Origin: an uncultured Alphaproteobacteria bacterium
GTDB lineage: Bacteria; Pseudomonadota; Alphaproteobacteria; CAAGCB01; CAG-977
Length of the DNA stretch: 64,000 nucleotides
Direction: 5' to 3'
NCBI GenBank assembly: GCA_944393745.1
Contig: CALYBD010000005.1
Location: 11,165-75,164 of the forward strand
In this document: positions 22,453-33,724 of the stretch, one piece after another
Layout of the letters: each line of letters opens with the position of its first letter
Numbering within the stretch: the stretch's first letter is position 1
Made by a program: the position numbers and the translations under genes
Notes under the pieces: generated by a model
The model's input: the letters and a program-made list of their open reading frames with translations, nothing else
The model's database searches: none
Told to the model about the DNA's origin: nothing

Positions 22453-23157
22453 ATGGAAAAAAGTATGTCAAATGCATCTGTTCGCCAAAATATCAAGAAA
22501 ACCGCGGCTTTGGGAATGCCTGCGGAAAACGGCGGGCGTTTGTCCATGTTTATGTGGTTATCGCGTTTTTTCAGTGTATTGTGCTTTTTTTTAGTAACTT
22601 CGCTTGCCGTTCTGGCATTGTCATTAATACATATTACCAAGGAATTGGAAGTAAATTCCGTTTTGGTAACAGCGCCGACGTATTCGGAAAATCTGGCTTA
22701 TTTCGAACCGCTGCACCCGGATATGCCCGCGATGGATATTCTGGCGGAAATGTTCGTGCGCCAGTATGTGACGGCCAGAAATAACGTTTGGCGTCATGCT
22801 CAGGAAATGCGCCGTATGTGGGGACGCGGCGGTATTGTTCGTTATATGTCGACACCTGCTGTATATGAAGAATTCGCCCGTCGGGAAGTCCCCAGATACT
22901 TTCCCGATCCGGCACAGCCGCCAACGGTTATGGTTGAAACGGATATTAAACGGATTATTAAAGAGGGATGGAACAGCTGGCAGATTTTCTTTGATACCCG
23001 TCGAATGGATACATCGATCAGTATGCCGGTTGTTGAACATTGGATTGCTACCATACAGTTTCGTTATTATTCCGATAACGCCATTATGTTTTTCCGTTTG
23101 CGCAATCCGTTGGGATTTACGGTAACGCAGTATCATTTGGCTCGTCAGAAAATATAA
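22453..23157 (+). CDS. virB8: T4SS VirB8-like protein, paralog 1 (bitopic, NTF2-like periplasmic domain)
   Basis: N-terminal TM helix (FFSVLCFFLVTSLAVLALSLI) and a C-terminal RLRNPLGFTVTQYHL matching the VirB8 NPLGF-V--Y signature. Collinear with paralog 2. Confidence 0.7.
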   Translation: MEKSMSNASVRQNIKKTAALGMPAENGGRLSMFMWLSRFFSVLCFFLVTSLAVLALSLIHITKELEVNSVLVTAPTYSENLAYFEPLHPDMPAMDILAEMFVRQYVTARNNVWRHAQEMRRMWGRGGIVRYMSTPAVYEEFARREVPRYFPDPAQPPTVMVETDIKRIIKEGWNSWQIFFDTRRMDTSISMPVVEHWIATIQFRYYSDNAIMFFRLRNPLGFTVTQYHLARQKI

Positions 23158-23393: not shown

Positions 23394-24164
23394 ATGCCAA
23401 CTCCGGTAAAATCAAAACAACAGCTGACAGTGAAAACGCCTGAAAACAACCCGGTTCAAAAGGGTTCCGTTTCCGGCGGATCCAATTTGAAAAAAAATGT
23501 TGTTCGTCAACCCGAACGTGAAGAAATTTCAATTGATCAGCTGCGGGAACGGCGTTATTTGTGGACGGCGCGGGCTTTTGCAATCGTGTCGGCCGTGGCG
23601 TTATGCGTTAATTTGGTTTTGTTGTTGGCGATTATTCATATTATGCCGCTGAAACGCGTTGAACCGTTTTTGCTGACGTTTCAGAACAGAGACGAACAGG
23701 TTGTAAAAATTCGTCCTTTGGCAAAGGATATGGCGGCGGAAGATATTATTTCCGAAGCCATGATCAGACAGTATGTGTTGTTAAGAAATACGATGATTTC
23801 GGACGTTGACGAGATGTCTTTCCGTTGGGGGCAGGACGGTCCTTTGCGCTGGATGTCTTCGGCGCAGGTGTATAACCAGTTTGCCAAAACGGTCAAGGAT
23901 TGGCTGTCAAGAATTAAACTGGAAGGCTTAACGCGCGAAGTCCGAATTGAATCCGTTGTTCGAAATCAAAACATCTGGCTGGTTTATATTGTGACGCGCG
24001 ATATGCTGCCGGAAGCCGAAGAACCCGCTATTTCGCGTTGGCGTATCCGTTTGTCGGTCAAATACTTTGCCAAAGATCAAAAAGAAGTCAAATATATTGA
24101 CCGGTTAAAGAATCCTTTGGGGTTTGCCGTTGACGGATATGCGATTGAAAGTGCTAACGATTAA
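23394..24164 (+). CDS. virB8: T4SS VirB8-like protein, paralog 2
   Basis: TM helix (AFAIVSAVALCVNLVLLLAII) and C-terminal RLKNPLGFAVDGYAI. An EAMIRQYV region parallels paralog 1 (EMFVRQYV). Confidence 0.75.
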   Translation: MPTPVKSKQQLTVKTPENNPVQKGSVSGGSNLKKNVVRQPEREEISIDQLRERRYLWTARAFAIVSAVALCVNLVLLLAIIHIMPLKRVEPFLLTFQNRDEQVVKIRPLAKDMAAEDIISEAMIRQYVLLRNTMISDVDEMSFRWGQDGPLRWMSSAQVYNQFAKTVKDWLSRIKLEGLTREVRIESVVRNQNIWLVYIVTRDMLPEAEEPAISRWRIRLSVKYFAKDQKEVKYIDRLKNPLGFAVDGYAIESAND

Positions 24165-24176
24165 AGAAGGTGTCCC

Positions 24177-25706
24177 GTGAAAAGAAATTTGAAAATTCGC
24201 CTTTTTGCTTTTGTTTCGTTGTCTTTTTGTTTTTTGCCGCAGGTCGTTTCGGCACAACAGACGGCTGCGCGTGAATCCATGGATGCGGCGATTGAACAGT
24301 CAAACGGGCAGTATTCTGAAATCGATATGCCGTTTTGGTCTTTGGGAATGCAACAAAAAGCATGGAATAAACCGATGGAACATATGGGGGAAGGCCAGTC
24401 CAAGCCGGGATATTCCAGATATTTTTGGACGCCTGATCTGGTTTTGCCGCTGCGGATTCGGGAAGGTATGCATACGCTGATTAACTTTCCGTCATGGGAA
24501 TTGATTGAAAATGTTTTTCTGGGAAATGAAAGTGCTTTCGGGGCACAGAAGGTCGCGCAGAATGCGTTGATGGTTTTTGCGGCAAATGTTGACCTGGTCG
24601 GTATGGATACGAATATGATTGTTTTCGGCCGTTCCGGGAACAGATATGTTTTTTATTTAAGAAGCGAAACCTTTAATACGGACAGAATAACCAATTCCGT
24701 CGTGGATATCGTTGTCAATGATGCAAAGTTTGTTCCCGATGATTCCGGGCAAACGCCGTTTGCTTCCGGTGCAGTCGGATCCGGCGCCGTTTCTTTTGGC
24801 GGGTCAGGCGGTTTCGGCGGCGCTTTGCGCGGCGCAAAAAAGACAACAACAAAAAACGGAACGGAAGACTGGTTGGCCGATATTGAAGTCGACCCCGAAA
24901 AATTGCGTTTTGATATTGATGTGTTTGTGCCTAATCCGGCGGATATGGAAATTGCGCCCGAACGCGTCTGGCGTGATGAGATTTTCACGTATATTGATTT
25001 CGGTCCGAAGGCGTTGACAATGACGGAACGTCCGATTGTTAATCTTTTGTCTCAGGGATCCGAAGTGCCGATCGGCTTCAGGACGCGCGGCCCCAACGGC
25101 CGACTGATGGTTGTGGAAGGCATCGGCGATTTGGTTTTGCGTAACGGGAAACGGATTTTATGCCTGAAGATCAGAAAAGATCCTGCTTTTGGCACCGAAT
25201 GGGTAGAATACGAAAAATCCGTTCAGCCGGAATGGTCGCCGGGGCCGATGATAACAACGGGCGGCTATAATGCTCCGTCTGCCGGCGGTGTTGCAAACAA
25301 TGCCGATAATACAAATATGCAGGCGGCAAATGCCATGATGATGCAGGCAGGACCGAACGGTATATTATCGGCCAATCAGATTGCTCAGTTTTCACAGCAG
25401 GGACGGGACAGTTCCCGCATGATCCGCCGTTATCGCGACACGTCTATGGAAACGATTGCGGTTGAACTGGGATCAGACAGCGAAATTGCTCCGTTGGAAC
25501 AGAAATGGGACAATATTTCACGTAAAAACAGGGATTTGCTTAATGCGTATGAACCGTATTACTCTGTTGACGCAGTCGCGGAAGGCGAATCAAAAGATTT
25601 ATTCCGTCTGCGCATCGGTCCGGTCGACAGCATTGAAGCAGGGGATAAACTATGTAATCAATTAGGTCGCCGCGGGGTGACGTGTATGGTTGTGCGGACA
25701 CAATGA
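24177..25706 (+). CDS. virB9: T4SS VirB9-like outer-membrane core protein, extended with a Gly/Ser-rich linker and a C-terminal SPOR-like segment
   Basis: GTG start with RBS; signal peptide (FLPQVVSA). A VirB9 N-domain pattern (HTLINFPSWELIENVFLGNE...MVFAANVDLVGMDTNMIVFGRSGNRYVFYL) and a C-domain pattern (YIDFGPK...IVNLL...GRLMVVEGIGDLVLRNGKRILCLKI). The terminal LFRLRIGPVDSIEAGDKLCNQLGRRGVTCMVV resembles a SPOR second half. Confidence 0.7.
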   Translation: MKRNLKIRLFAFVSLSFCFLPQVVSAQQTAARESMDAAIEQSNGQYSEIDMPFWSLGMQQKAWNKPMEHMGEGQSKPGYSRYFWTPDLVLPLRIREGMHTLINFPSWELIENVFLGNESAFGAQKVAQNALMVFAANVDLVGMDTNMIVFGRSGNRYVFYLRSETFNTDRITNSVVDIVVNDAKFVPDDSGQTPFASGAVGSGAVSFGGSGGFGGALRGAKKTTTKNGTEDWLADIEVDPEKLRFDIDVFVPNPADMEIAPERVWRDEIFTYIDFGPKALTMTERPIVNLLSQGSEVPIGFRTRGPNGRLMVVEGIGDLVLRNGKRILCLKIRKDPAFGTEWVEYEKSVQPEWSPGPMITTGGYNAPSAGGVANNADNTNMQAANAMMMQAGPNGILSANQIAQFSQQGRDSSRMIRRYRDTSMETIAVELGSDSEIAPLEQKWDNISRKNRDLLNAYEPYYSVDAVAEGESKDLFRLRIGPVDSIEAGDKLCNQLGRRGVTCMVVRTQ

Positions 25707-28700
25707 ACGAAGATTTACTCAGCTCATCAGACAGATATTTAAAAAAGTCCAACAGAACACTGTTGATTGTCGGGATTATAGCCTTTTTGGCTTTTCTGAC
25801 AGGCGTCATCGTGCTGTTGAGCGGAGAAGAAGAACGTAAAAAAGATGCCGAAGTAACGATTGAAGGATCAGCGGAAAGCTCCAGCAGTATCGTTGGCGGC
25901 GACGCCGATACCTTTAGTCTGCCCGAAGAGGCAACAGCATCTACGGTGCGTTTGGTCGTTACCCCCGAAACCATGCGGTTTGATCAGGTCGTTCTGGGAA
26001 CAATGGCGGAAGGAACATTGACGTTATCGGCTTCTTCCGGGCGGATCAGCGTGACGGCAATCGAATTTGAAAATAAACAGGAAGACGGCTTTGTTCTGGA
26101 AAATAAATGTCGTAAAGATATTGTCCTGACCGGAGACGTCACCTGTAACGTTGTCGTGCGCTGGGAACCGAAAACGGCGCGGACGATTCAGTCTAATCTG
26201 GCTGTTCGCTGGACAGATGAAACGTTCGGCGGTATCGGGCGAAAAGTTATTGTTCCCATTTCGGCAATGGCAATTGATACCAGTATGTGCGGCGTTTGTG
26301 ATGAAGTGCCGGGCAGCAGCGGATCCATGCTGGATCAGCTGCGTCAAAAAGGTCGTGTCATTTTGGGGCCTGACGGGAAACCGATCGGATATGCCGACGA
26401 AAACGGTGTTGTTTACGGGTTGGACGGCAAAAGAATCGGAACTTTGCGCGAAGACGGAACCGTTGTTGATGATCAGGGCTATGTGATCGGTGTTGCGGAA
26501 GGCAGCAGAATAGCCATCGGTCCGAACGGGGAAATCCTGGGTACGATTCTGCCGGACGGCCGCGTAATAGATAAAGACGGCCGTTTGATCGGTTATGCTT
26601 TGCCGGACGGTACCATTGTTGATGAAAACGGAAACGTGATCGGATCTGCGATTAAAACGGGAATCGCGTATGATAAAAACGGCAATCCGATCGGGCGGAT
26701 TATGCCGGACGGGACGGTTGTCGACGATGAAGGCAACGTGATCGGCTATGTGAATCCGGACGGGACGATCGTTGATGCCAACGGTAATATTATCGGATCC
26801 GTTGCGCCGCAGGGAACGGTGGTTGACGCTTCGGGAAAACCGCTGGGAATTGTTATGCCGGACGGGACGGTCGTTGATGCTGACGGCAATATTATCGGCC
26901 GGACTTTACCAAACGGCTTTGTCGTTGACAGAGACGGCAATATTATCGGCCGTGTTGTCAAAGAAGGATTGGCAATCGGGCCCGGTTGCCGCATGATCGG
27001 CAGAATCAGTACGGACGGTTCCGTTATGTCTTCAAACAGACAGGTGGGGCGTTTAACGGCTTCCATGACCGTTGTCGATATGGCGGGCAATCCGATCGGC
27101 GGCTATGTTGAAGAAGGCGCTCTGATTGACTGGGCGGGGAAAATTATCGGTAAGGTCGATCAGGACGGACACCCCGTTTCTTTTAAAGGGGATCCTCTGG
27201 GGTGTTTAACGCCGTACGGGACGGTTGTTAACGATTCTGAAGAAATTATTGCCGCCGTTTTGCCGAAAGGAACGGTTGTCGGAACGCAGTGCGGCGTTGT
27301 CGGACGTGTTATGCCGGACGGCAGTGTTGTCGGCGATGGTCAGATTAAAGGACGCATTTTGCCGGATAAATCATTTTTATCGACAGAAGGGAAAATTGCG
27401 GGCGCTTTGGCGCGTCAGAATGTCGGTGTCGGACCGGGGTGTATGTCTTTGGGATATGTCAATCTTGACGGACAGGTTATGACAGCCAAGGGCGAACTGG
27501 TCGGCTGTCTGGCGGCGAACGGGGAAATCCTTGATAATCAAAAAGTCGTTTTGGGAAAAATATTGGATTCCGCCGTTGCCATAAATCCCGACGGGCGGGT
27601 TGTCGGCGTAATGGATCCGGTCGGCAGAATTCAGGATAAAGAAGGAAAAATTTTAGGCTGTGCGGATCCTGACGGGCTGGTTATTAACTCCAAAAACGAA
27701 TCGGTCGGCATAATGATGCCGACGGGCGGTGTTTTGGATCGTGACGGGCGTACAATCGGCTGGGTTATGCCGGACGGTTCTGTTTCAAACGGAAAAAACA
27801 GCACTGTCGGTAAAGTCATGCCGGACGGGACTGTCATTGACCTGACCGGACAAACGGTTGCTCGTGTCGCACCGTATAAAGGACTGGCTTTAAGAGGCAG
27901 CTGTGAACCGGTCGGCAACGTTTTGATTGACGGGCGTGTCGTTGATAATGAATTTAAACGGACGGCTTATATCCGCATGGACGACAGTCTGGCAAACGAA
28001 GCCGGTGATTTTGTCGGCCGTATCGCTTATGGCGCCAGAGGCATCAGTGCCAAAGACGTTTATTTGGGGGCAACGGGAAATGACGGCACGTTATATAATC
28101 CGGCCGGCGAAAAAATCGGTTGCTTGCGCCCGGATTCTTTATTCGTTGACGCAGAAAATAAATTTTTGGGCGCGGCTCTTCCCGAAGGAGTGGCTGTTAA
28201 TGATAAATCAGAACTGTATGCCCGAGGCGATTCGATCGCCAAAGCGCTGGATCTGAAAGGATCGGAATTTATCGGTTCGGTGACGCTCAGCGGCTTTATC
28301 AAAGAAGGCGACAGAATTTCCGGCGGAATTATTCCGGACAGAGCTGATGTTTTGGATATTAAAACCAGTGAAAAAATCGGTCGTTTATTGCCTGACGGTA
28401 CGGCGCTGGATTTGCTCAGCCGTTATTTGGGACGGTTAAGAATGCCCAGTGGGGAAATTGTCAATAAAGACGGCCGCGTCGTCGGTAAGATCTTTGTCGG
28501 TATGCGCCAAGTGATCGGCCCGAACGGAGAAATTCTGGGGGTGGTGATGCCGGACGGTACCGTGGTAGATGCTTCGGGTCGCGTTATCGGCAAAGCCGAT
28601 TTGAACGGTAAAGTCGTTGATAAAGACGGACGGGTCATCGGTGAAGTCATTCCGGTCGGCCAGCCGATTATCGGCCCTGACGGGAAAATTATCGGTTACG

Positions 28701-31700
28701 TCGGTGTCGACGGCCAGATTGTTGACAAAGACGGGAATCCCGTTTTAGGTCCCGACGGAAAGCCTTTGCGTTATCGTGCCGGCGGTTCTGTCGTTGAAGA
28801 CGGCGGAGAAGTGATCGGAAAAATCGGCGAGACTCTGGAACGTCTGGTTTATGATGAAAACGGCAATGTGATCGGCCGGGTATTGCCGGACGGAACGGTC
28901 GTTGATTTGGAAGGCAACGTGATCGGCACGATGCGTCCGGACGGCACGGTGGTGGATAAAGACGGCAATGTGATCGGCAGGGCAGGTCAGCCGGAACGTC
29001 TGGTTTATGATGAAAACGGTAATTTAATCGGTCGCGTATTGCCGGACGGAACGGTCGTCGATCTGAAAGGCAACGTGATCGGCCGTGTTCAGGACGACGG
29101 TACGGTGACGGCTTTGGGCTCTAAAGTGATCGGCTATACGGTCAAAGACGGTCTGGGACTGAACTTTAAAAATGAAATTATCGGTAAAATCAATTCTTCC
29201 GGTCAGCTTAAAGAACCCGGTTCGGATAAATCTTTGGGTTTTTTGCAGGCAGATGACACCATTACGGACGCAACGAATACCGTTATCGGCAAAGGGGTTG
29301 TTAATGCCGTTCCCATTGGTCTGCAATGTCAGATGCTGGGGACGATTGACGATAACGGGCAGGTTATTGATACAACGGGACGGCAGATCGGCCGGCTGAA
29401 TTATGATCGTTCTTTGGTTAATGCTTCGAATGCTCAGATCGGTTTGGCTTTGGGGCAGGAATCCATTATTAATGAACCGTGTGAGATTATCGGGCAGATT
29501 ACGACCGAAGGAAAAGCAGTCGATACCAAAGGTCAGGAAATCGGCTGTGTTGATTTTGAAGGGCTGGTAAAAGATAAAAACGGAAAACGACTGGGACGAA
29601 TCGTTCAGAAAGGACAGGTGCGCGGCCCCGATGATCAGATTATCGGCAGGATCGTTGCCAACGGTGAAGCGTTGGGATCTCAGGGGGACGTGTTAGGGTG
29701 TTTTTCGATTGACGGTGCCGTTTTGGATAAAAATAAAAAAATCCTGGGGGTTTCTGCCGACATGAAATATGCCATTGACGATCAGGGGAAAGTCATTGCT
29801 CATATTTTGGGCGGCACGTACGGCGTTAATCCTGCAGGCGGATCTTTTGTCGGTATGTTAAACGGGCAAAATCTGATCGGCGCAGAAAATCGTCAGTTGG
29901 GCGTACTTGTTCCTGCCGGCAGAAAAGTCATTGCAACGGACGGTAAGATTGTCGGAACCGTTCTGCCGCGCGGGCAGGTTCATAATGACCGCGGAGAAGA
30001 TGTCGGTTATGCCACTTCGTCCATGCGAGTTTTAACCGCAGATCGTAAATTTTTGGGACGCGTCGTCCCGATCGGCGAAGAATGTAAAGACGGTAAAAAC
30101 AACGTTGTCGGTACCGTCCACTTTGACGGCACGATTATTGACGAAAGAAAACAGGTCTTAGGACGTTTGCTGGCCAGCGGCCAGGCTTTGGACAATTCCG
30201 GTGCTCATTTATGTATGATTTCTTTGATCAGTACAAATGATGACGGGTCTTTGTTCCCGAAAGGGTTGATCGGAAAAATGGTTTACGGTCCGGACGGAAA
30301 GCCGTTGGGTGTTATCGGTGAAGACGGGTTTATTCGTGATGCAAACGGTAATATTATCGGACGTGTTTTGCCGGACGGCACGGTCGTCGATTTGGACGGC
30401 AACGTGATCGGCAAGGCTTATCCGAAAGGGGCTGTTTTCAGTCCTGACGGTAAATTTTTGGGTATTGTTGACGCAGACGGGTATTTGCGGGACGAAAACG
30501 GCAATATCATCGGCAGAATGTTGCCGGACGGTACCGTTGTCGATATGAACGGTAACATTATCGGCCGGGCTTTGCAGGAAGACGGTATTGTCGATTCAAA
30601 AGGGAATTTCCTGACAAAAGCAGGCGAAGACCGTTTGGTTTATGATGCCAACGGCAACGTGATCGGACGTGTTTTGCCGGACGGTACCGTTGTTGATTTA
30701 AAGGGGAACGTTATCGGCAGAATGTTGCCGGACGGTACGGTCGTTGATGCAAACGGCAATGTGATCGGTCGGGCGGGGCCGCCCGAGCGTTTGGCCTATG
30801 ATGCGAACGGCAATGTGATCGGTCGGGTATTGCCGGACGGTACCGTTGTTGATTTTAAAGGCAATGTAATCGGAAGAGTACAGCCCGACGGGACAATTGT
30901 TGATGCGACCGGGAAAGTTATCGGTCGGGCCGGGCCGCCTGTTGAGGCAAAAAATGTTCGTATTGCTGTCGGGCGTGACGGTAAATTTTTGGGTGTTGTC
31001 GGTGAAGACGGTCTTGTCCGTGACGAAAACGGCAATGTGATCGGCCGGGTATTGCCGGACGGAACGGTTGTTGACATGAACGGAAATGTAATCGGTTCTG
31101 TGATTGAAGGAGAACCGATGCGTGATGCAAACGGCAATATTATCGGTGTTATCATGCCGGACGGCCGCGTTGTTGATTTAGACGGCAATGTGATCGGTCG
31201 CATTAATGCAAACGGGGAAATCGTTGATGCGGACGGAACGGTTTTGGGCACATGGCGCGGCGGGAAACTGACGGCAATGAGCGATAAGCTGCAGAAAAAA
31301 CGTTTTGCGTTCGGCAAGGACGGCAAAAGAATCGGTATGATTATGCCGGACGGAACGGTTGTTGATGAAAACGGCAATATTATCGGTCGCGTTGATGAAG
31401 ACGGTAATGTGGTCGATTTAGACGGCAACATCATCGGGACGGTTGAAGAACCGTCTGCGGGAGGGCCGGCAGAAGAAGATAAAAAAGAAGGCAGTGTTTC
31501 CATTTTTGGTGCTTTTGATCCGGAAAATTACCGGTATCGCGGTAAATCTTTGGGATCCGGCGGCGGTACGGGAAAAGGGGAACGTTATGATCCCGCCCGC
31601 ATAAAACAGCTTCGGGCATTGCAATTGGCTTATCGTCGTCAGATCAGACCCGGACGGGGGATCGGCATTGCCTCGACCGAAGAAGATTTGCTGAAAAAGC

Positions 31701-32728
31701 AAAAACGCAGCAAAAGTTGGGCTGATTTGGGTGTGCTGAAGAATGTATCATCATATCGTGTCAATATGGATAATATGATTTTGGCGGATAAAGCCATACC
31801 GGCCGTTTTGGCGCGTTCCATTGATACGGAACAGGAAGATATTCCCATTTCCGCAATTGTTGAACGCAACATTTATTCGGAATCGGGACGTAAAATTATT
31901 ATTCCCGCCGGCAGCCGTGTTATTGGCGAACTCAGCGGTTCTTCGGCCAGTGAAGAAGTCGGAGCGGCTTCAAAAGTCGAAATTTCCTGGACACGCCTGA
32001 TTCGTCCGGACGGTGCGGCGTTCCAGTTTGACGAAGGATCTTCGGGTGATGCTTCCGGTCGTGCGGGCGTCGGCGCGTATATGGACCGACAGTTGATGAA
32101 GAAATACGGACTGCCGATGGTTCAGTCGACAATTACTTCTGCAATTTTGTATGCCATGGCAACGGATGACGCGGCCGAAGTCGGATCAGAAGGTGAAGTT
32201 GCCATGTCGGGTCGTCAGCAGGCGGCTGAAGATGCACGTACCAGATTTTCCGATACGATGCAGCAGATTTTTGATGATATCATCAGTGAAACGTCACAGT
32301 TAAAAACGCGCTTGTTTGTTCCTTCCGGTACACGAATTACGATTTTTGCAAACGCGGATTTATGGCTGCGCAGTGAAGCAGAAGATGAAGATGAAGCGTC
32401 TATCGGCAAGAAAGATGTTTTGATTGATCCAGATAAAGATGATGACAGAAATGTTGTTGATGATCCTTCTACGATTTCTTCGGGTACGACGACTCCGCAT
32501 GATCCGAACGCTCAAAATGTCCAAAATGATCCAAATAACTTGCAACAACAGCAGCAAATTTACTATAATAATTATGCTGGTCAGCAGGCGCCGCAACAGC
32601 AACAGCCTCCGCAGGGCAGATTGATCGACAGTAATAAGCAGCAACAACAACAGCAGCAGCCACTTCCGCCGCCGATTATACAGGAAAAGAAAGAAGAACC
32701 GGTTGATCCCGTTCCCGAACTTTTCTAA
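25703..32728 (+). CDS. virB10: Giant T4SS VirB10-like protein (about 2,340 aa): N-terminal TM anchor, a beta-rich domain, an internal repeat array of about 1,700 aa, a canonical VirB10/TrbI C-terminal domain, and a Q/P-rich tail
   Basis: Likely ATG at 25703 overlapping the virB9 stop (ATGA); the track starts at the GTG at 25682. TM helix LLIVGIIAFLAFLTGVIVLL. The C-terminal block IIPAGSRVIGELSG...KVEISWTRLIRPDGAAFQFDEGSSGDASGRAGVGAYMDRQLMKKYG matches the conserved VirB10/TrbI signature (IPAG-R-IGE...W-RLI-PDG....G.D..GRAG..G). Confidence 0.8.
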   Translation: MNEDLLSSSDRYLKKSNRTLLIVGIIAFLAFLTGVIVLLSGEEERKKDAEVTIEGSAESSSSIVGGDADTFSLPEEATASTVRLVVTPETMRFDQVVLGTMAEGTLTLSASSGRISVTAIEFENKQEDGFVLENKCRKDIVLTGDVTCNVVVRWEPKTARTIQSNLAVRWTDETFGGIGRKVIVPISAMAIDTSMCGVCDEVPGSSGSMLDQLRQKGRVILGPDGKPIGYADENGVVYGLDGKRIGTLREDGTVVDDQGYVIGVAEGSRIAIGPNGEILGTILPDGRVIDKDGRLIGYALPDGTIVDENGNVIGSAIKTGIAYDKNGNPIGRIMPDGTVVDDEGNVIGYVNPDGTIVDANGNIIGSVAPQGTVVDASGKPLGIVMPDGTVVDADGNIIGRTLPNGFVVDRDGNIIGRVVKEGLAIGPGCRMIGRISTDGSVMSSNRQVGRLTASMTVVDMAGNPIGGYVEEGALIDWAGKIIGKVDQDGHPVSFKGDPLGCLTPYGTVVNDSEEIIAAVLPKGTVVGTQCGVVGRVMPDGSVVGDGQIKGRILPDKSFLSTEGKIAGALARQNVGVGPGCMSLGYVNLDGQVMTAKGELVGCLAANGEILDNQKVVLGKILDSAVAINPDGRVVGVMDPVGRIQDKEGKILGCADPDGLVINSKNESVGIMMPTGGVLDRDGRTIGWVMPDGSVSNGKNSTVGKVMPDGTVIDLTGQTVARVAPYKGLALRGSCEPVGNVLIDGRVVDNEFKRTAYIRMDDSLANEAGDFVGRIAYGARGISAKDVYLGATGNDGTLYNPAGEKIGCLRPDSLFVDAENKFLGAALPEGVAVNDKSELYARGDSIAKALDLKGSEFIGSVTLSGFIKEGDRISGGIIPDRADVLDIKTSEKIGRLLPDGTALDLLSRYLGRLRMPSGEIVNKDGRVVGKIFVGMRQVIGPNGEILGVVMPDGTVVDASGRVIGKADLNGKVVDKDGRVIGEVIPVGQPIIGPDGKIIGYVGVDGQIVDKDGNPVLGPDGKPLRYRAGGSVVEDGGEVIGKIGETLERLVYDENGNVIGRVLPDGTVVDLEGNVIGTMRPDGTVVDKDGNVIGRAGQPERLVYDENGNLIGRVLPDGTVVDLKGNVIGRVQDDGTVTALGSKVIGYTVKDGLGLNFKNEIIGKINSSGQLKEPGSDKSLGFLQADDTITDATNTVIGKGVVNAVPIGLQCQMLGTIDDNGQVIDTTGRQIGRLNYDRSLVNASNAQIGLALGQESIINEPCEIIGQITTEGKAVDTKGQEIGCVDFEGLVKDKNGKRLGRIVQKGQVRGPDDQIIGRIVANGEALGSQGDVLGCFSIDGAVLDKNKKILGVSADMKYAIDDQGKVIAHILGGTYGVNPAGGSFVGMLNGQNLIGAENRQLGVLVPAGRKVIATDGKIVGTVLPRGQVHNDRGEDVGYATSSMRVLTADRKFLGRVVPIGEECKDGKNNVVGTVHFDGTIIDERKQVLGRLLASGQALDNSGAHLCMISLISTNDDGSLFPKGLIGKMVYGPDGKPLGVIGEDGFIRDANGNIIGRVLPDGTVVDLDGNVIGKAYPKGAVFSPDGKFLGIVDADGYLRDENGNIIGRMLPDGTVVDMNGNIIGRALQEDGIVDSKGNFLTKAGEDRLVYDANGNVIGRVLPDGTVVDLKGNVIGRMLPDGTVVDANGNVIGRAGPPERLAYDANGNVIGRVLPDGTVVDFKGNVIGRVQPDGTIVDATGKVIGRAGPPVEAKNVRIAVGRDGKFLGVVGEDGLVRDENGNVIGRVLPDGTVVDMNGNVIGSVIEGEPMRDANGNIIGVIMPDGRVVDLDGNVIGRINANGEIVDADGTVLGTWRGGKLTAMSDKLQKKRFAFGKDGKRIGMIMPDGTVVDENGNIIGRVDEDGNVVDLDGNIIGTVEEPSAGGPAEEDKKEGSVSIFGAFDPENYRYRGKSLGSGGGTGKGERYDPARIKQLRALQLAYRRQIRPGRGIGIASTEEDLLKKQKRSKSWADLGVLKNVSSYRVNMDNMILADKAIPAVLARSIDTEQEDIPISAIVERNIYSESGRKIIIPAGSRVIGELSGSSASEEVGAASKVEISWTRLIRPDGAAFQFDEGSSGDASGRAGVGAYMDRQLMKKYGLPMVQSTITSAILYAMATDDAAEVGSEGEVAMSGRQQAAEDARTRFSDTMQQIFDDIISETSQLKTRLFVPSGTRITIFANADLWLRSEAEDEDEASIGKKDVLIDPDKDDDRNVVDDPSTISSGTTTPHDPNAQNVQNDPNNLQQQQQIYYNNYAGQQAPQQQQPPQGRLIDSNKQQQQQQQPLPPPIIQEKKEEPVDPVPELF
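26350..31450 (+). repeat. In-frame tandem repeat array inside virB10: on the order of 100 units of about 17 aa (consensus LPDGTVVDxxGNVIGRx, two G-x-(V/I)-(V/I) half-units), with higher-order units of about 50 aa
   Basis: Visible directly in the translation (for example RVLPDGTVVDLKGNVIGRMLPDGTVVDANGNVIGRAGPPERLAYDANGNVIGR...) and at DNA level, with related copies at 28848-29085 and 30625-30950. The repeat generates many spurious antisense ORFs. Confidence 0.9.
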
Positions 32729-32746: not shown

Positions 32747-33724
32747 ATGAGTATGGATTCTTTTCAGGTTTTAAGATCGACATTGCGTTATCTGTCATAT
32801 TGGTATGAACAAGATAACGTCGAAGAAGTCGCGATTAACCGTCCGAACGAAATTTGGTTGCGTTTGCGCGGACGCAGGGCTCATCCTTGGGCATGCCAGC
32901 AGGACGCCAATCTGTCCAGAACGTATCTGACGGACATCATGCATATTATCGCCAACACGTTTGAACTGCCGTTTGATCCCGAACAGGGATCGCCGGCCGT
33001 GTATGCCACGCTGCCGGGCGATCACCGTTTTACGGGAATTGCGGGCAAAAACGTTATGTATGATAACGAGGATCTGACCGGCGGTATTGCCATGTGCGTT
33101 CGTGTTCATTCCGATGATGTGAAATTCGGATTGGGGGATTACGGCCTGAAATCGGGGGAACGCCTGCAAAAGCTTAATAAATTGAAAGAAGTTGAAAATC
33201 CGGAAGATCCGTATGAACGCCTGATTTTATCAATTAAGCGCGGCGACCATATTTTGGTTTCCGGGGCAACGGCAACCGGTAAAACGACATTTTTGAATAA
33301 CCTGCTGACCATTTTGGATTCGCATAAACGGGTAATTACGATTGAAGATACCCGCGAATTAATTGTGCCGCATCCCAACCATGTACATTTGGTGTTATCG
33401 CGTACGGAACAAACAAACACAATGACATATCCGAAATTGATTGACCTGGTTGTTCGTTTTACGCCGGATGCGATTATCGGCGGGGAAATTTCAACGGCTA
33501 ATGCCGGGGCGTTGTGGGAATTGATGGGATCCGGGCATGACAACTGCTTTGCGACAATTCACGCCGAAAATTCCGAAGCGGCCTATAAAGCGTTTACGGA
33601 TCGTATTCTGCATTGCTATCCGACGATTGACCGTGAAAAAACAATTGCCGAAATGCATGATAAGCTGCGGGTGGTTCAGATCAATCGTCAGGGAAATATC
33701 CGTGCCGTGACAGAAGTGACCTAA
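32747..33724 (+). CDS. virB11: T4SS ATPase VirB11 (traffic ATPase)
   Basis: Walker A GATATGKTT, Asp box IEDTRELIV, His box GSGHDNCFATIHA; 325 aa; directly downstream of virB10. Confidence 0.85.
   Translation: MSMDSFQVLRSTLRYLSYWYEQDNVEEVAINRPNEIWLRLRGRRAHPWACQQDANLSRTYLTDIMHIIANTFELPFDPEQGSPAVYATLPGDHRFTGIAGKNVMYDNEDLTGGIAMCVRVHSDDVKFGLGDYGLKSGERLQKLNKLKEVENPEDPYERLILSIKRGDHILVSGATATGKTTFLNNLLTILDSHKRVITIEDTRELIVPHPNHVHLVLSRTEQTNTMTYPKLIDLVVRFTPDAIIGGEISTANAGALWELMGSGHDNCFATIHAENSEAAYKAFTDRILHCYPTIDREKTIAEMHDKLRVVQINRQGNIRAVTEVT

Follow-up and report, generated by a model that had tools for sequence, protein, structure and literature searches.

A 64,000-nucleotide (nt) stretch of contig CALYBD010000005.1 (assembly GCA_944393745.1), from an uncultured member of the Alphaproteobacteria, encodes a giant homologue of VirB10, a core protein of type IV secretion systems (T4SSs). 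Between its membrane anchor and its outer-membrane domain, this protein carries about 1,700 residues of a short, tandemly repeated beta-hairpin. Judged by profile matches, the repeat is of the Pfam beta-flower/DUF3659 type and distantly YD/Rhs-like. Compared across relatives, the array reads as an old, position-specific and selectively maintained structure with slow modular change in copy number. We lean, at little better than an even chance, towards the array acting as a rigid, probably disulfide-stapled structure in the periplasm, a scaffold or collar for an expanded T4SS, as suggested for the middle domains of CagY and DotG but with another fold. The 64,000-nt stretch is called the window below, and all coordinates refer to it.

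The repeat and its predicted fold

A first-pass annotation of the window had reported roughly 100 copies of a unit of about 17 residues at 26350-31450, which corresponds to amino acids (aa) 223-1923 of the open reading frame (ORF). Unit and length hold up, and so does the count once degenerate units are included. The canonical unit, LPDGTVVDxxGNVIGRx, has 17 residues and occurs in about 50 copies; the remainder are degenerate. Identity autocorrelation over aa 216-1930 reaches its highest value, 0.244, at lag 17, where the background is about 0.055; lags 34, 51 and 68 show up as harmonics. When aa 225-1925 is taken as five sub-blocks, lag 17 or 34 ranks first in each and passes the 95th percentile of shuffled sequence, with values of 0.43 (aa 225-430), 0.15-0.17 (aa 431-950), 0.28 (aa 951-1140), 0.16 (aa 1141-1540) and 0.36 (aa 1541-1925). 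A consistent 17-residue unit therefore runs throughout aa 224-1925. The period is not seen by autocorrelation in the N-terminal 224 aa, and in the C-terminal 423 aa lag 17 is weak and second-ranked (0.118) behind lag 1, which comes from a Q/P-rich tail.

A unit hidden Markov model (HMM) built from the protein itself recognised 51 units above 0 bits, against none or one in each of 20 shuffles; a narrower first model had caught about 40 before the seed was broadened. Since the HMM recognised only these 51, the degenerate units are shown by autocorrelation and by AlphaFold2 (AF2) models. The region holds 67 copies of the motif G-x-h-h-G, with a single copy outside it; a spacing of exactly 17 is found in 33 cases. 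Dividing 1,702 aa by 17 gives 100 slots, and with the degenerate units, which are still predicted as hairpins, the total comes to roughly 95-100 beta-hairpins, about 50 of them canonical.

Higher-order repetition is also present. A 52-residue super-unit of three hairpins occurs in four clean copies, starting at aa 1053, 1105, 1650 and 1702, and in several looser ones, in keeping with the earlier description of units of about 50 residues recurring at least four times. Tandem Repeats Finder reports a period of 156 nt within the array. The shorter degenerate form described earlier was located at aa 227-253 (ILGPDGKPIGYADENGVVYGLDGKRIG). The unit had also been described as two related half-motifs, but no sequence likeness between them was detected, lags 8 and 9 lying at background. 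The repeat was found in no other ORF of the window.

The first-pass annotation could not assign the repeat to a known family, and on this point it was mistaken: the whole region matches PF21785, PF21784 and PF12396. On the whole protein, Bflower_2 (PF21785) scores 452.6 bits against a cut-off of 38 (E 2.9e-138, 18 stretches), DUF3659 (PF12396) 175 bits against 24.8 (E 2.6e-52) and Bflower (PF21784) 144.6 bits against 25 (E 2e-42). When the array was cut into ten overlapping slices of 190 aa, all ten matched PF21785 and nine exceeded the gathering score. Several families had been excluded earlier, and most of these exclusions stand, as the Pfam models for RTX, pentapeptide, hexapeptide-LbH, MORN and WG repeats gave no match at E <= 0.01 on the whole protein or the slices. 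A calcium-binding beta-roll, considered for the D/G-rich turns, was ruled out by the lack of an RTX match and of a GGxGxD motif.

The exclusion of YD repeats does not stand. RHS_repeat (PF05593) scores 74.4 against 22 and the YD model TIGR01643 scores 101.4 against 15.8, both as sums of many weak units over the whole protein. One unit, at aa 1689-1722 ('GPPERLAYDANGNVIGRV...'), is the single matched stretch of the slice aa 1584-1773 (slice total 43.4 bits); because this unit passes the RHS/YD model by itself, the hairpin can be called YD-like. It shares the pattern Y-D-x-x-G-N/R-x-I with the repeats of Rhs toxins, Tc toxin BC components and teneurins ('RLVYDENGNVIG'), but differs from them in its 17-aa period and in having T/V instead of Y in most units. 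Rhs repeat cocoons are accompanied by N- and C-terminal domains. Pfam found no domains in this protein beyond the repeat families and TrbI, and no sign of the terminal domains of Rhs cocoons.

The beta-flower families (clan CL0395) were described by Durairaj et al., Nature 2023 (PMC10584680), as shallow barrels of hairpin 'petals' with a [DNEQ]xxG motif at the tip; barrels of 8, 10 or 12 strands have 4-, 5- or 6-fold symmetry. The array resembles them in its matches far above the gathering score over the whole region, in its short antiparallel hairpins and in this tip motif: in the unit ..TVV-D-x-x-G-N-VIG.., AF2 places strands at TVV and VIGRx with DxxGN in the loop between. It differs in other respects. 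Described beta-flowers are single domains of about 96 aa, whereas here about 100 helix-free hairpins follow one another in a T4SS core protein. Many, not all, of the described flowers enclose a C-terminal hydrophobic helix, and many enclose such a helix or carry a lipoprotein signal; here only 3 of 819 modelled residues are helical. Loops have 4 and 5 residues in the array but 4 and 9 in the archetype. The hairpins may close into flowers, run as an open spiral or form a compact body. Clues to flower symmetry conflict, as the best Pfam model is 5-fold, the super-period is three hairpins (51-52 aa) and cysteine pairs lie 4.3 hairpins apart and interleave.

The beta-strand character proposed from sequence is borne out by AF2, which predicts two strands per unit with starts every 8-9 residues. 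The model of aa 224-640 (417 aa), run on a 29-sequence alignment, is all-beta with a predicted local distance difference test score (pLDDT) of 90.4 and a predicted template-modelling score (pTM) of 0.85. The model of aa 224-1042 (819 aa) is likewise all-beta, with a pLDDT of 77.1 and a pTM of 0.68; its lower pLDDT reflects a shallower alignment (14 sequences). Its 91 strands start alternately 8 and 9 residues apart. In both models, strands of five residues (VIGRx) alternate with strands of three (TVV); a loop of four residues (xPDG) follows the former and a loop of five (DxxGN) the latter. In the longer model this pattern carries on through the 'degenerate' part of the array. The pTM values suggest that the array is largely rigid, with hairpins in fixed relative positions as opposed to beads on a string. 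Of the extended rigid stalk suggested in the first-pass annotation, these values speak to the rigidity. Within the array, pLDDT falls below 50 only at aa 835-885 (28185-28337), a stretch that coincides with the lowest occupancy of the family alignment (0.48-0.74 over aa 751-900) and may be a variable loop or hinge.

Comparison with solved structures yielded only local likeness. Foldseek against the PDB returned no globally similar structure (template-modelling (TM) score <= 0.19), and its best E-values were to Rhs proteins, teneurins, TcdA CROPs and fascin. The best matches, to Rhs proteins, reach E 6e-12 to 7e-11, yet their TM scores are <= 0.10 and the likeness is not global. A profile of the repeat alignment had no match among PDB sequences, and a comparison with viral models gave local matches only.

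A giant VirB10 in a secretion operon

The mechanical ORF (25682..32728, forward strand) opens with GTG 25682, overlaps virB9 and gives 2,348 aa. The true start is likely ATG 25703, because all orthologues begin MNE(E/D)LL and public gene calls give exactly the shorter product (Table 1). This ATG overlaps the virB9 stop by 4 nt, which suggests translational coupling.

The giant protein is read as a VirB10 homologue on the strength of its TrbI domain, its PDB matches, its virB8, virB9 and virB11 neighbours and its single helix. The first-pass annotation had assigned the repeat to the part of a T4SS core protein that spans the periplasm, and the transmembrane helix, the TrbI domain and the virB8-virB9-virB10-virB11 operon all agree with this. 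By homology, the TrbI domain would be the outer-membrane core-complex domain. Against PDB sequences, the C-terminal 422 aa match ComB10 (2bhv, E 1.3e-17) and TrwE (7o3j, E 3.4e-9), and also CagY and Xanthomonas VirB10. The protein is bitopic, with one N-terminal transmembrane helix (Kyte-Doolittle 19-residue windows exceed 1.6 at aa 23-32 only). By topology, the array is placed in the periplasm, because it lies between this helix and the outer-membrane TrbI domain.

The protein shares its transmembrane helix, TrbI domain and gene order with canonical VirB10/TrbI proteins (Agrobacterium VirB10, R388 TrwE, Xanthomonas VirB10 and Helicobacter pylori ComB10). However, solved chains of canonical VirB10 have about 250-450 aa, whereas here there are 1,700 aa of hairpins and a 170-aa Cys-containing domain. 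Equivalog-level models score far below their cut-offs: NF038091 gives 95.1 against 220, NF038092 114.3 against 300 and PRK13831 43.9 against 386.

Table 1. Features of the giant virB10 locus in window coordinates, with residue numbers counted on the 2,348-aa ORF
Feature	Coordinates	Strand	Residues	Properties and basis
Two adjacent virB8 paralogues	22453-23157 and 23394-24164	+		Upstream of virB9
virB9 (VirB9/CagX homologue)	24177-25706	+	509 aa	C-terminal SPOR domain
Giant virB10/trbI homologue	25703..32728	+	2,341 aa	ORF and public gene calls; likely start
Sole hydrophobic transmembrane segment	25754..25822	+	aa ~25-47	Kyte-Doolittle; short cytoplasmic tail before it
N-terminal periplasmic non-repeat domain	25832..26350	+	aa 51-223	Cysteine conservation
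Repeat array	26351..31456	+	aa 224-1925 (1,702 aa)	Beta-flower/DUF3659 type; 176.5 kDa; isoelectric point (pI) 4.8
Canonical block 1	26351..26971	+	aa 224-430	Near-perfect 17-aa units; lag-17 identity 0.43
Degenerate block A	26972..28531	+	aa 431-950	Cysteine pairs 436/508, 537/609, 587/660; indel-prone aa 835-885
Middle canonical block	28532..29101	+	aa 951-1140	Two tandem 52-aa modules start inside
Degenerate block B	29102..30301	+	aa 1141-1540	Subclade-specific cysteine pairs 1216/1289, 1267/1340
Canonical block 2	30302..31456	+	aa 1541-1925	52-aa modules at aa 1650-1753 (30629-30940)
Basic linker, array to TrbI domain	31457..31771	+	aa 1926-2030	pI 9.9
TrbI/VirB10 C-terminal domain	31778..32368	+	aa 2033-2229	PF03743, 106.7 bits against a cut-off of 35
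C-terminal tail	32378..32725	+		Acidic, Q/P-rich, low complexity; ends ...PVPELF
virB11-type ATPase	32747..33724	+		Directly downstream; PF00437; gene order matches public contigs

In the N-terminal non-repeat domain, Cys143, Cys155 and a C-x-x-C motif at 203-206 are kept in 99-100% of 117 homologues. The domain has a weak choice-of-anchor D match under the cut-off (E 0.0015), and for one homologue a precomputed PF15780 match is available. At the other end, the C-terminal tail (aa 2233-2348) has 61-68% identity to close orthologues, against 77-95% for the array. Despite this poor conservation, the terminus ...(D/E)P(V/A)PELF is kept in closer orthologues.

The SPOR domain of VirB9, a peptidoglycan-binding domain, lies at aa 463-507 (window about 25563-25697; PF05036, E 3.8e-5). 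To our knowledge, such a domain is unusual for VirB9. Its presence suggests that this T4SS is tied to the cell wall.

Components corresponding to virB2-B6, virB4 and virD4 did not turn up among the larger ORFs scanned in the window. These ORFs encode housekeeping functions, including PFK, a DEAD helicase, TrkH, homoserine dehydrogenase and RecJ; the ORF at 47533-48513 matches 'Mitochondrial fission ELM1' (PF06258, E 5e-81) and is unrelated to the array. The rvh system of Rickettsiales is a scattered chromosomal T4SS with duplicated components, and the layout here recalls it.

Two compositional features accompany the array. GC skew is 0.22-0.23 over 26001-32000, against roughly 0.04-0.17 in the flanks, and long antisense ORFs cross the repeats at 30796-31503 (235 aa) and 26746-27090. 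Both seem to result from the repetitive use of G-rich codons (Gly, Asp, Val), and the ORFs are probably not genes.

Constraint, cysteine pairs and a split gene

More than 100 clusters (90% identity) of proteins with both Bflower and TrbI emerged from a word-index search; these proteins have 2,150-2,430 aa and are 27-53% identical. Named sources are metagenome-assembled genomes (MAGs) of Alphaproteobacteria, except one labelled Lactobacillales, and annotations read 'DUF3659 domain-containing', 'TrbI/VirB10 family' or 'hypothetical'. The genome loci come from human, primate and rumen gut MAGs. The array family as such is rare, since a HMMER scan of 1.84 billion representatives with a profile of aa 224-640 gave just 901 matches at E <= 1e-3, 89 of them at E <= 1e-30.

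The 117-sequence family alignment is collinear, and this holds over an entire clade of gut Alphaproteobacteria. In windows of 50 aa, identity to the reference is 0.38-0.47 over aa 251-550 and 0.43-0.62 in the TrbI domain. Ratios of nonsynonymous to synonymous substitution (dN/dS) against close orthologues are, approximately, 0.03-0.08 for the repeat blocks and 0.06-0.09 for the TrbI domain. Across the family, no stretch of the protein is more conserved than the one that includes canonical block 1 (dN/dS 0.03-0.05). On these approximate values, purifying selection on the array appears as strong as that on the TrbI domain.

At the DNA level, unit copies share only 60-78% identity, and no exact repeat exceeds 44 nt. 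An identical 2,341-aa protein is encoded on at least six public metagenome contigs, and the two places shown belong to separate assemblies. Because of the diverged DNA copies, the identical proteins across samples and the low dN/dS, the array does not look like a fast recombination substrate.

Change does occur, by whole modules. Among orthologues at 61-88% identity, differences within the array consist of whole blocks of 52 or 104-106 aa; the exceptions, in more distant orthologues, are a 17-aa deletion (locus L008) and a 12-aa insertion (loci L007 and L009). The indels sit in canonical blocks, near aa 1043-1148 and 1547-1775, and no indel of five or more residues was found in aa 8-1042 among the orthologues. 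For example, the tandem three-hairpin modules at aa 1053-1156 (28838-29149) are both missing from four orthologues, and canonical block 2 is the site of copy-number differences of 52 and about 105 aa. Between the modules starting at aa 1053 and 1105, 83% of codons are the same where the residue is identical.

Six cysteines in aa 436-660 are kept in 86-100% of the 117 sequences. Cysteines 436 and 508 occur together in 113 sequences and are jointly missing from 4, with no case of one alone; for 537 and 609, the corresponding counts are 101, 15 and 1; the pair 587/660 is invariant. Spacing within pairs is 72-73 residues, and 73 is the commonest Cys-Cys spacing across the family. A close subclade has three further pairs (741/814, 1216/1289 and 1267/1340). 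One member of a pair replaces the tip glycine (GxxC) and its partner follows the long strand (hGC), while successive pairs interleave with a 51-residue offset. These cysteines are probably disulfide staples between neighbouring three-hairpin modules, since they co-vary in pairs; this also fits a periplasmic location.

In a sister clade, the giant virB10 is divided into two genes (L010:1665-10966, L011:1971-10969 and L012:1971-10969). The first product (1,588-1,691 aa, stop to stop) carries the transmembrane helix, the N-terminal Cys domain and repeats; the second (1,417-1,428 aa) begins with a predicted signal peptide, followed by further repeats and the TrbI domain. The 72-74-residue Cys-Cys spacing recurs here. 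The two ORFs overlap as TAATG with GGAGGA just upstream, an arrangement that marks them as translationally coupled. This split-gene type probably also includes many representatives of 1,400-1,650 aa whose match to the array profile sets in at about residue 30.

Possible roles of the array

The position, size, rigidity and conservation of the array are the grounds for favouring a scaffold or collar. The array sits between the anchor in the inner membrane and the TrbI domain at the outer membrane, where ordinary VirB10 has a short proline-rich periplasmic linker. Core complexes contain about 14 VirB10 copies, as known from the R388 and Cag structures, and PDB entries for CagY and Xanthomonas VirB10 hold 14 chains each. 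With about 14 copies of a 176.5 kDa array, the periplasm would gain some 2.5 MDa of beta structure, which could form a structural collar, cage or stalk sheath. The array would then be a fixed architectural element and not a recombination switch.

Two known systems offer precedents. CagY of Helicobacter pylori is likewise a VirB10 homologue of about 2,000 aa, with a repeat-rich region N-terminal to TrbI and a homologous C-terminal domain. Its repeats, which lie in a 5' and a middle repeat region, are not known to be beta-hairpins of the type found here. DotG of Legionella and Coxiella also has a repeat array between membrane anchor and TrbI domain, but its repeat is a 10-residue [KR]xAG[FY][STND]xxx[LI] unit without a confident structure prediction (10.1101/2023.03.22.533729), whereas the unit here is a 17-residue, confidently predicted hairpin in an array of about three times the total length. 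A cryo-ET and modelling study proposes that in DotG and CagY the middle domains, rich in repeats, form a periplasmic collar, 13-fold in DotG; it argues that conjugative VirB10 proteins have neither such a domain nor a collar, and calls the purpose of the collar unclear (10.1101/2023.03.22.533729).

Several points weigh against a scaffold or collar. At some 1,700 residues in each of 14 copies, the arrays would be very massive for a periplasm of normal width, and the collar assignment of DotG and CagY is itself just a proposal. The dN/dS values are only approximate because dS is near saturation (about 1-2). The split-gene clade implies that a continuous chain from inner to outer membrane is not required; this would fit a scaffold but weaken the case for a force-transmitting stalk.

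Alternatively, the array may bind peptidoglycan or the cell wall, fixing the machine in the sacculus or spacing it from there. The neighbouring SPOR domain of VirB9 indicates that the machine appears to contact the wall, choline-binding and CROP-type hairpin repeats bind carbohydrate ligands, and 'cell wall-binding' annotations occur among beta-flower relatives (PMC10584680). Local Foldseek matches also include the CROP repeats of TcdA and LytC, a choline-binding autolysin, although with TM scores <= 0.15. However, with aromatics at only 3.5% of array residues, there is no obvious ligand pocket rich in them, no known peptidoglycan-binding Pfam family matched the array, and 100 hairpins in 14 copies go far beyond what anchoring needs. 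We consider wall binding unlikely, while noting that it could be compatible with a scaffold.

A flexible spacer or length ruler, adapting VirB10 to a wide or variable periplasm without a defined quaternary structure, seems quite improbable. It would account for the steady length of about 2,150-2,430 aa across relatives with only about 30% identity, and for the differences in module copy number between species. The authors of the Dot/Icm study speculate that repeats permit expansion in width or height (10.1101/2023.03.22.533729). However, the pTM values of 0.85 and 0.68 favour fixed relative positions, position-specific conservation and co-varying cysteine pairs exceed the needs of a spacer, and the split-gene clade breaks the chain.

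The precedent of CagY raises the question of a variable switch, in which repeats recombine and alter T4SS activity or antigenicity, possibly as a surface-exposed region in contact with the host. In CagY, a VirB10 orthologue with a huge repeat region, highly similar DNA copies recombine in frame during infection and tune secretion (PMC5954226, PMC3585145). The array resembles CagY in its in-frame length change by whole modules, and the 52- and 105-aa differences between orthologues keep a slow version of this process alive; the modules at aa 1053 and 1105 still have most codons (83%) in common where residues agree. However, near-identical long direct DNA repeats of the CagY type are not present in the array, where copies have diverged to 60-78% identity and exact repeats reach 44 nt at most. 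Moreover, the same protein recurs in at least two separate assemblies and on at least six contigs in all, dN/dS of 0.03-0.08 points to strong purifying selection with no sign of diversifying selection, the array is periplasmic by topology, and module changes are seen solely between species-level relatives. A switch of this kind is thus very unlikely. A lipid-binding or transfer module akin to Tubby or scramblase barrels, prompted by the shared clan CL0395 and by the likeness of six-fold flowers to the Tubby C-terminal domain (PMC10584680), is scarcely credible given the lack of an enclosed helix and of a structural match.

The repeat itself is, by its profile matches, already known from the beta-flower and DUF3659 Pfam families. 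What appears to be new is the architecture, with about 1,700 residues of beta-flower repeat replacing the periplasmic linker of VirB10, kept in more than 100 protein clusters from host-associated Alphaproteobacteria. No paper on this giant VirB10 was found in the literature on DUF3659, Bflower/PF21785 or VirB10 with RF32. These repeat families were previously without known function or experimental structure, and the array provides the first clear cellular context for the beta-flower repeat: the periplasm, within a secretion machine and probably disulfide-bonded.

[quoted passage not shown] A bolder and decidedly tentative idea, short of an even chance, is that gut Alphaproteobacteria independently evolved a third 'expanded' T4SS, with about 14 VirB10 copies of about 100 disulfide-stapled hairpins each forming a megadalton collar or cage. 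If true, VirB10 need not be one continuous chain from inner to outer membrane in these machines, because the sister clade encodes the array as two coupled polypeptides. The array could then also be the first tractable model of T4SS collars, being confidently predictable unlike the repeats of CagY and DotG. Its confident prediction and modularity make the question of T4SS collars more approachable, and the family draws attention to an uncharacterised secretion system of common gut commensals.

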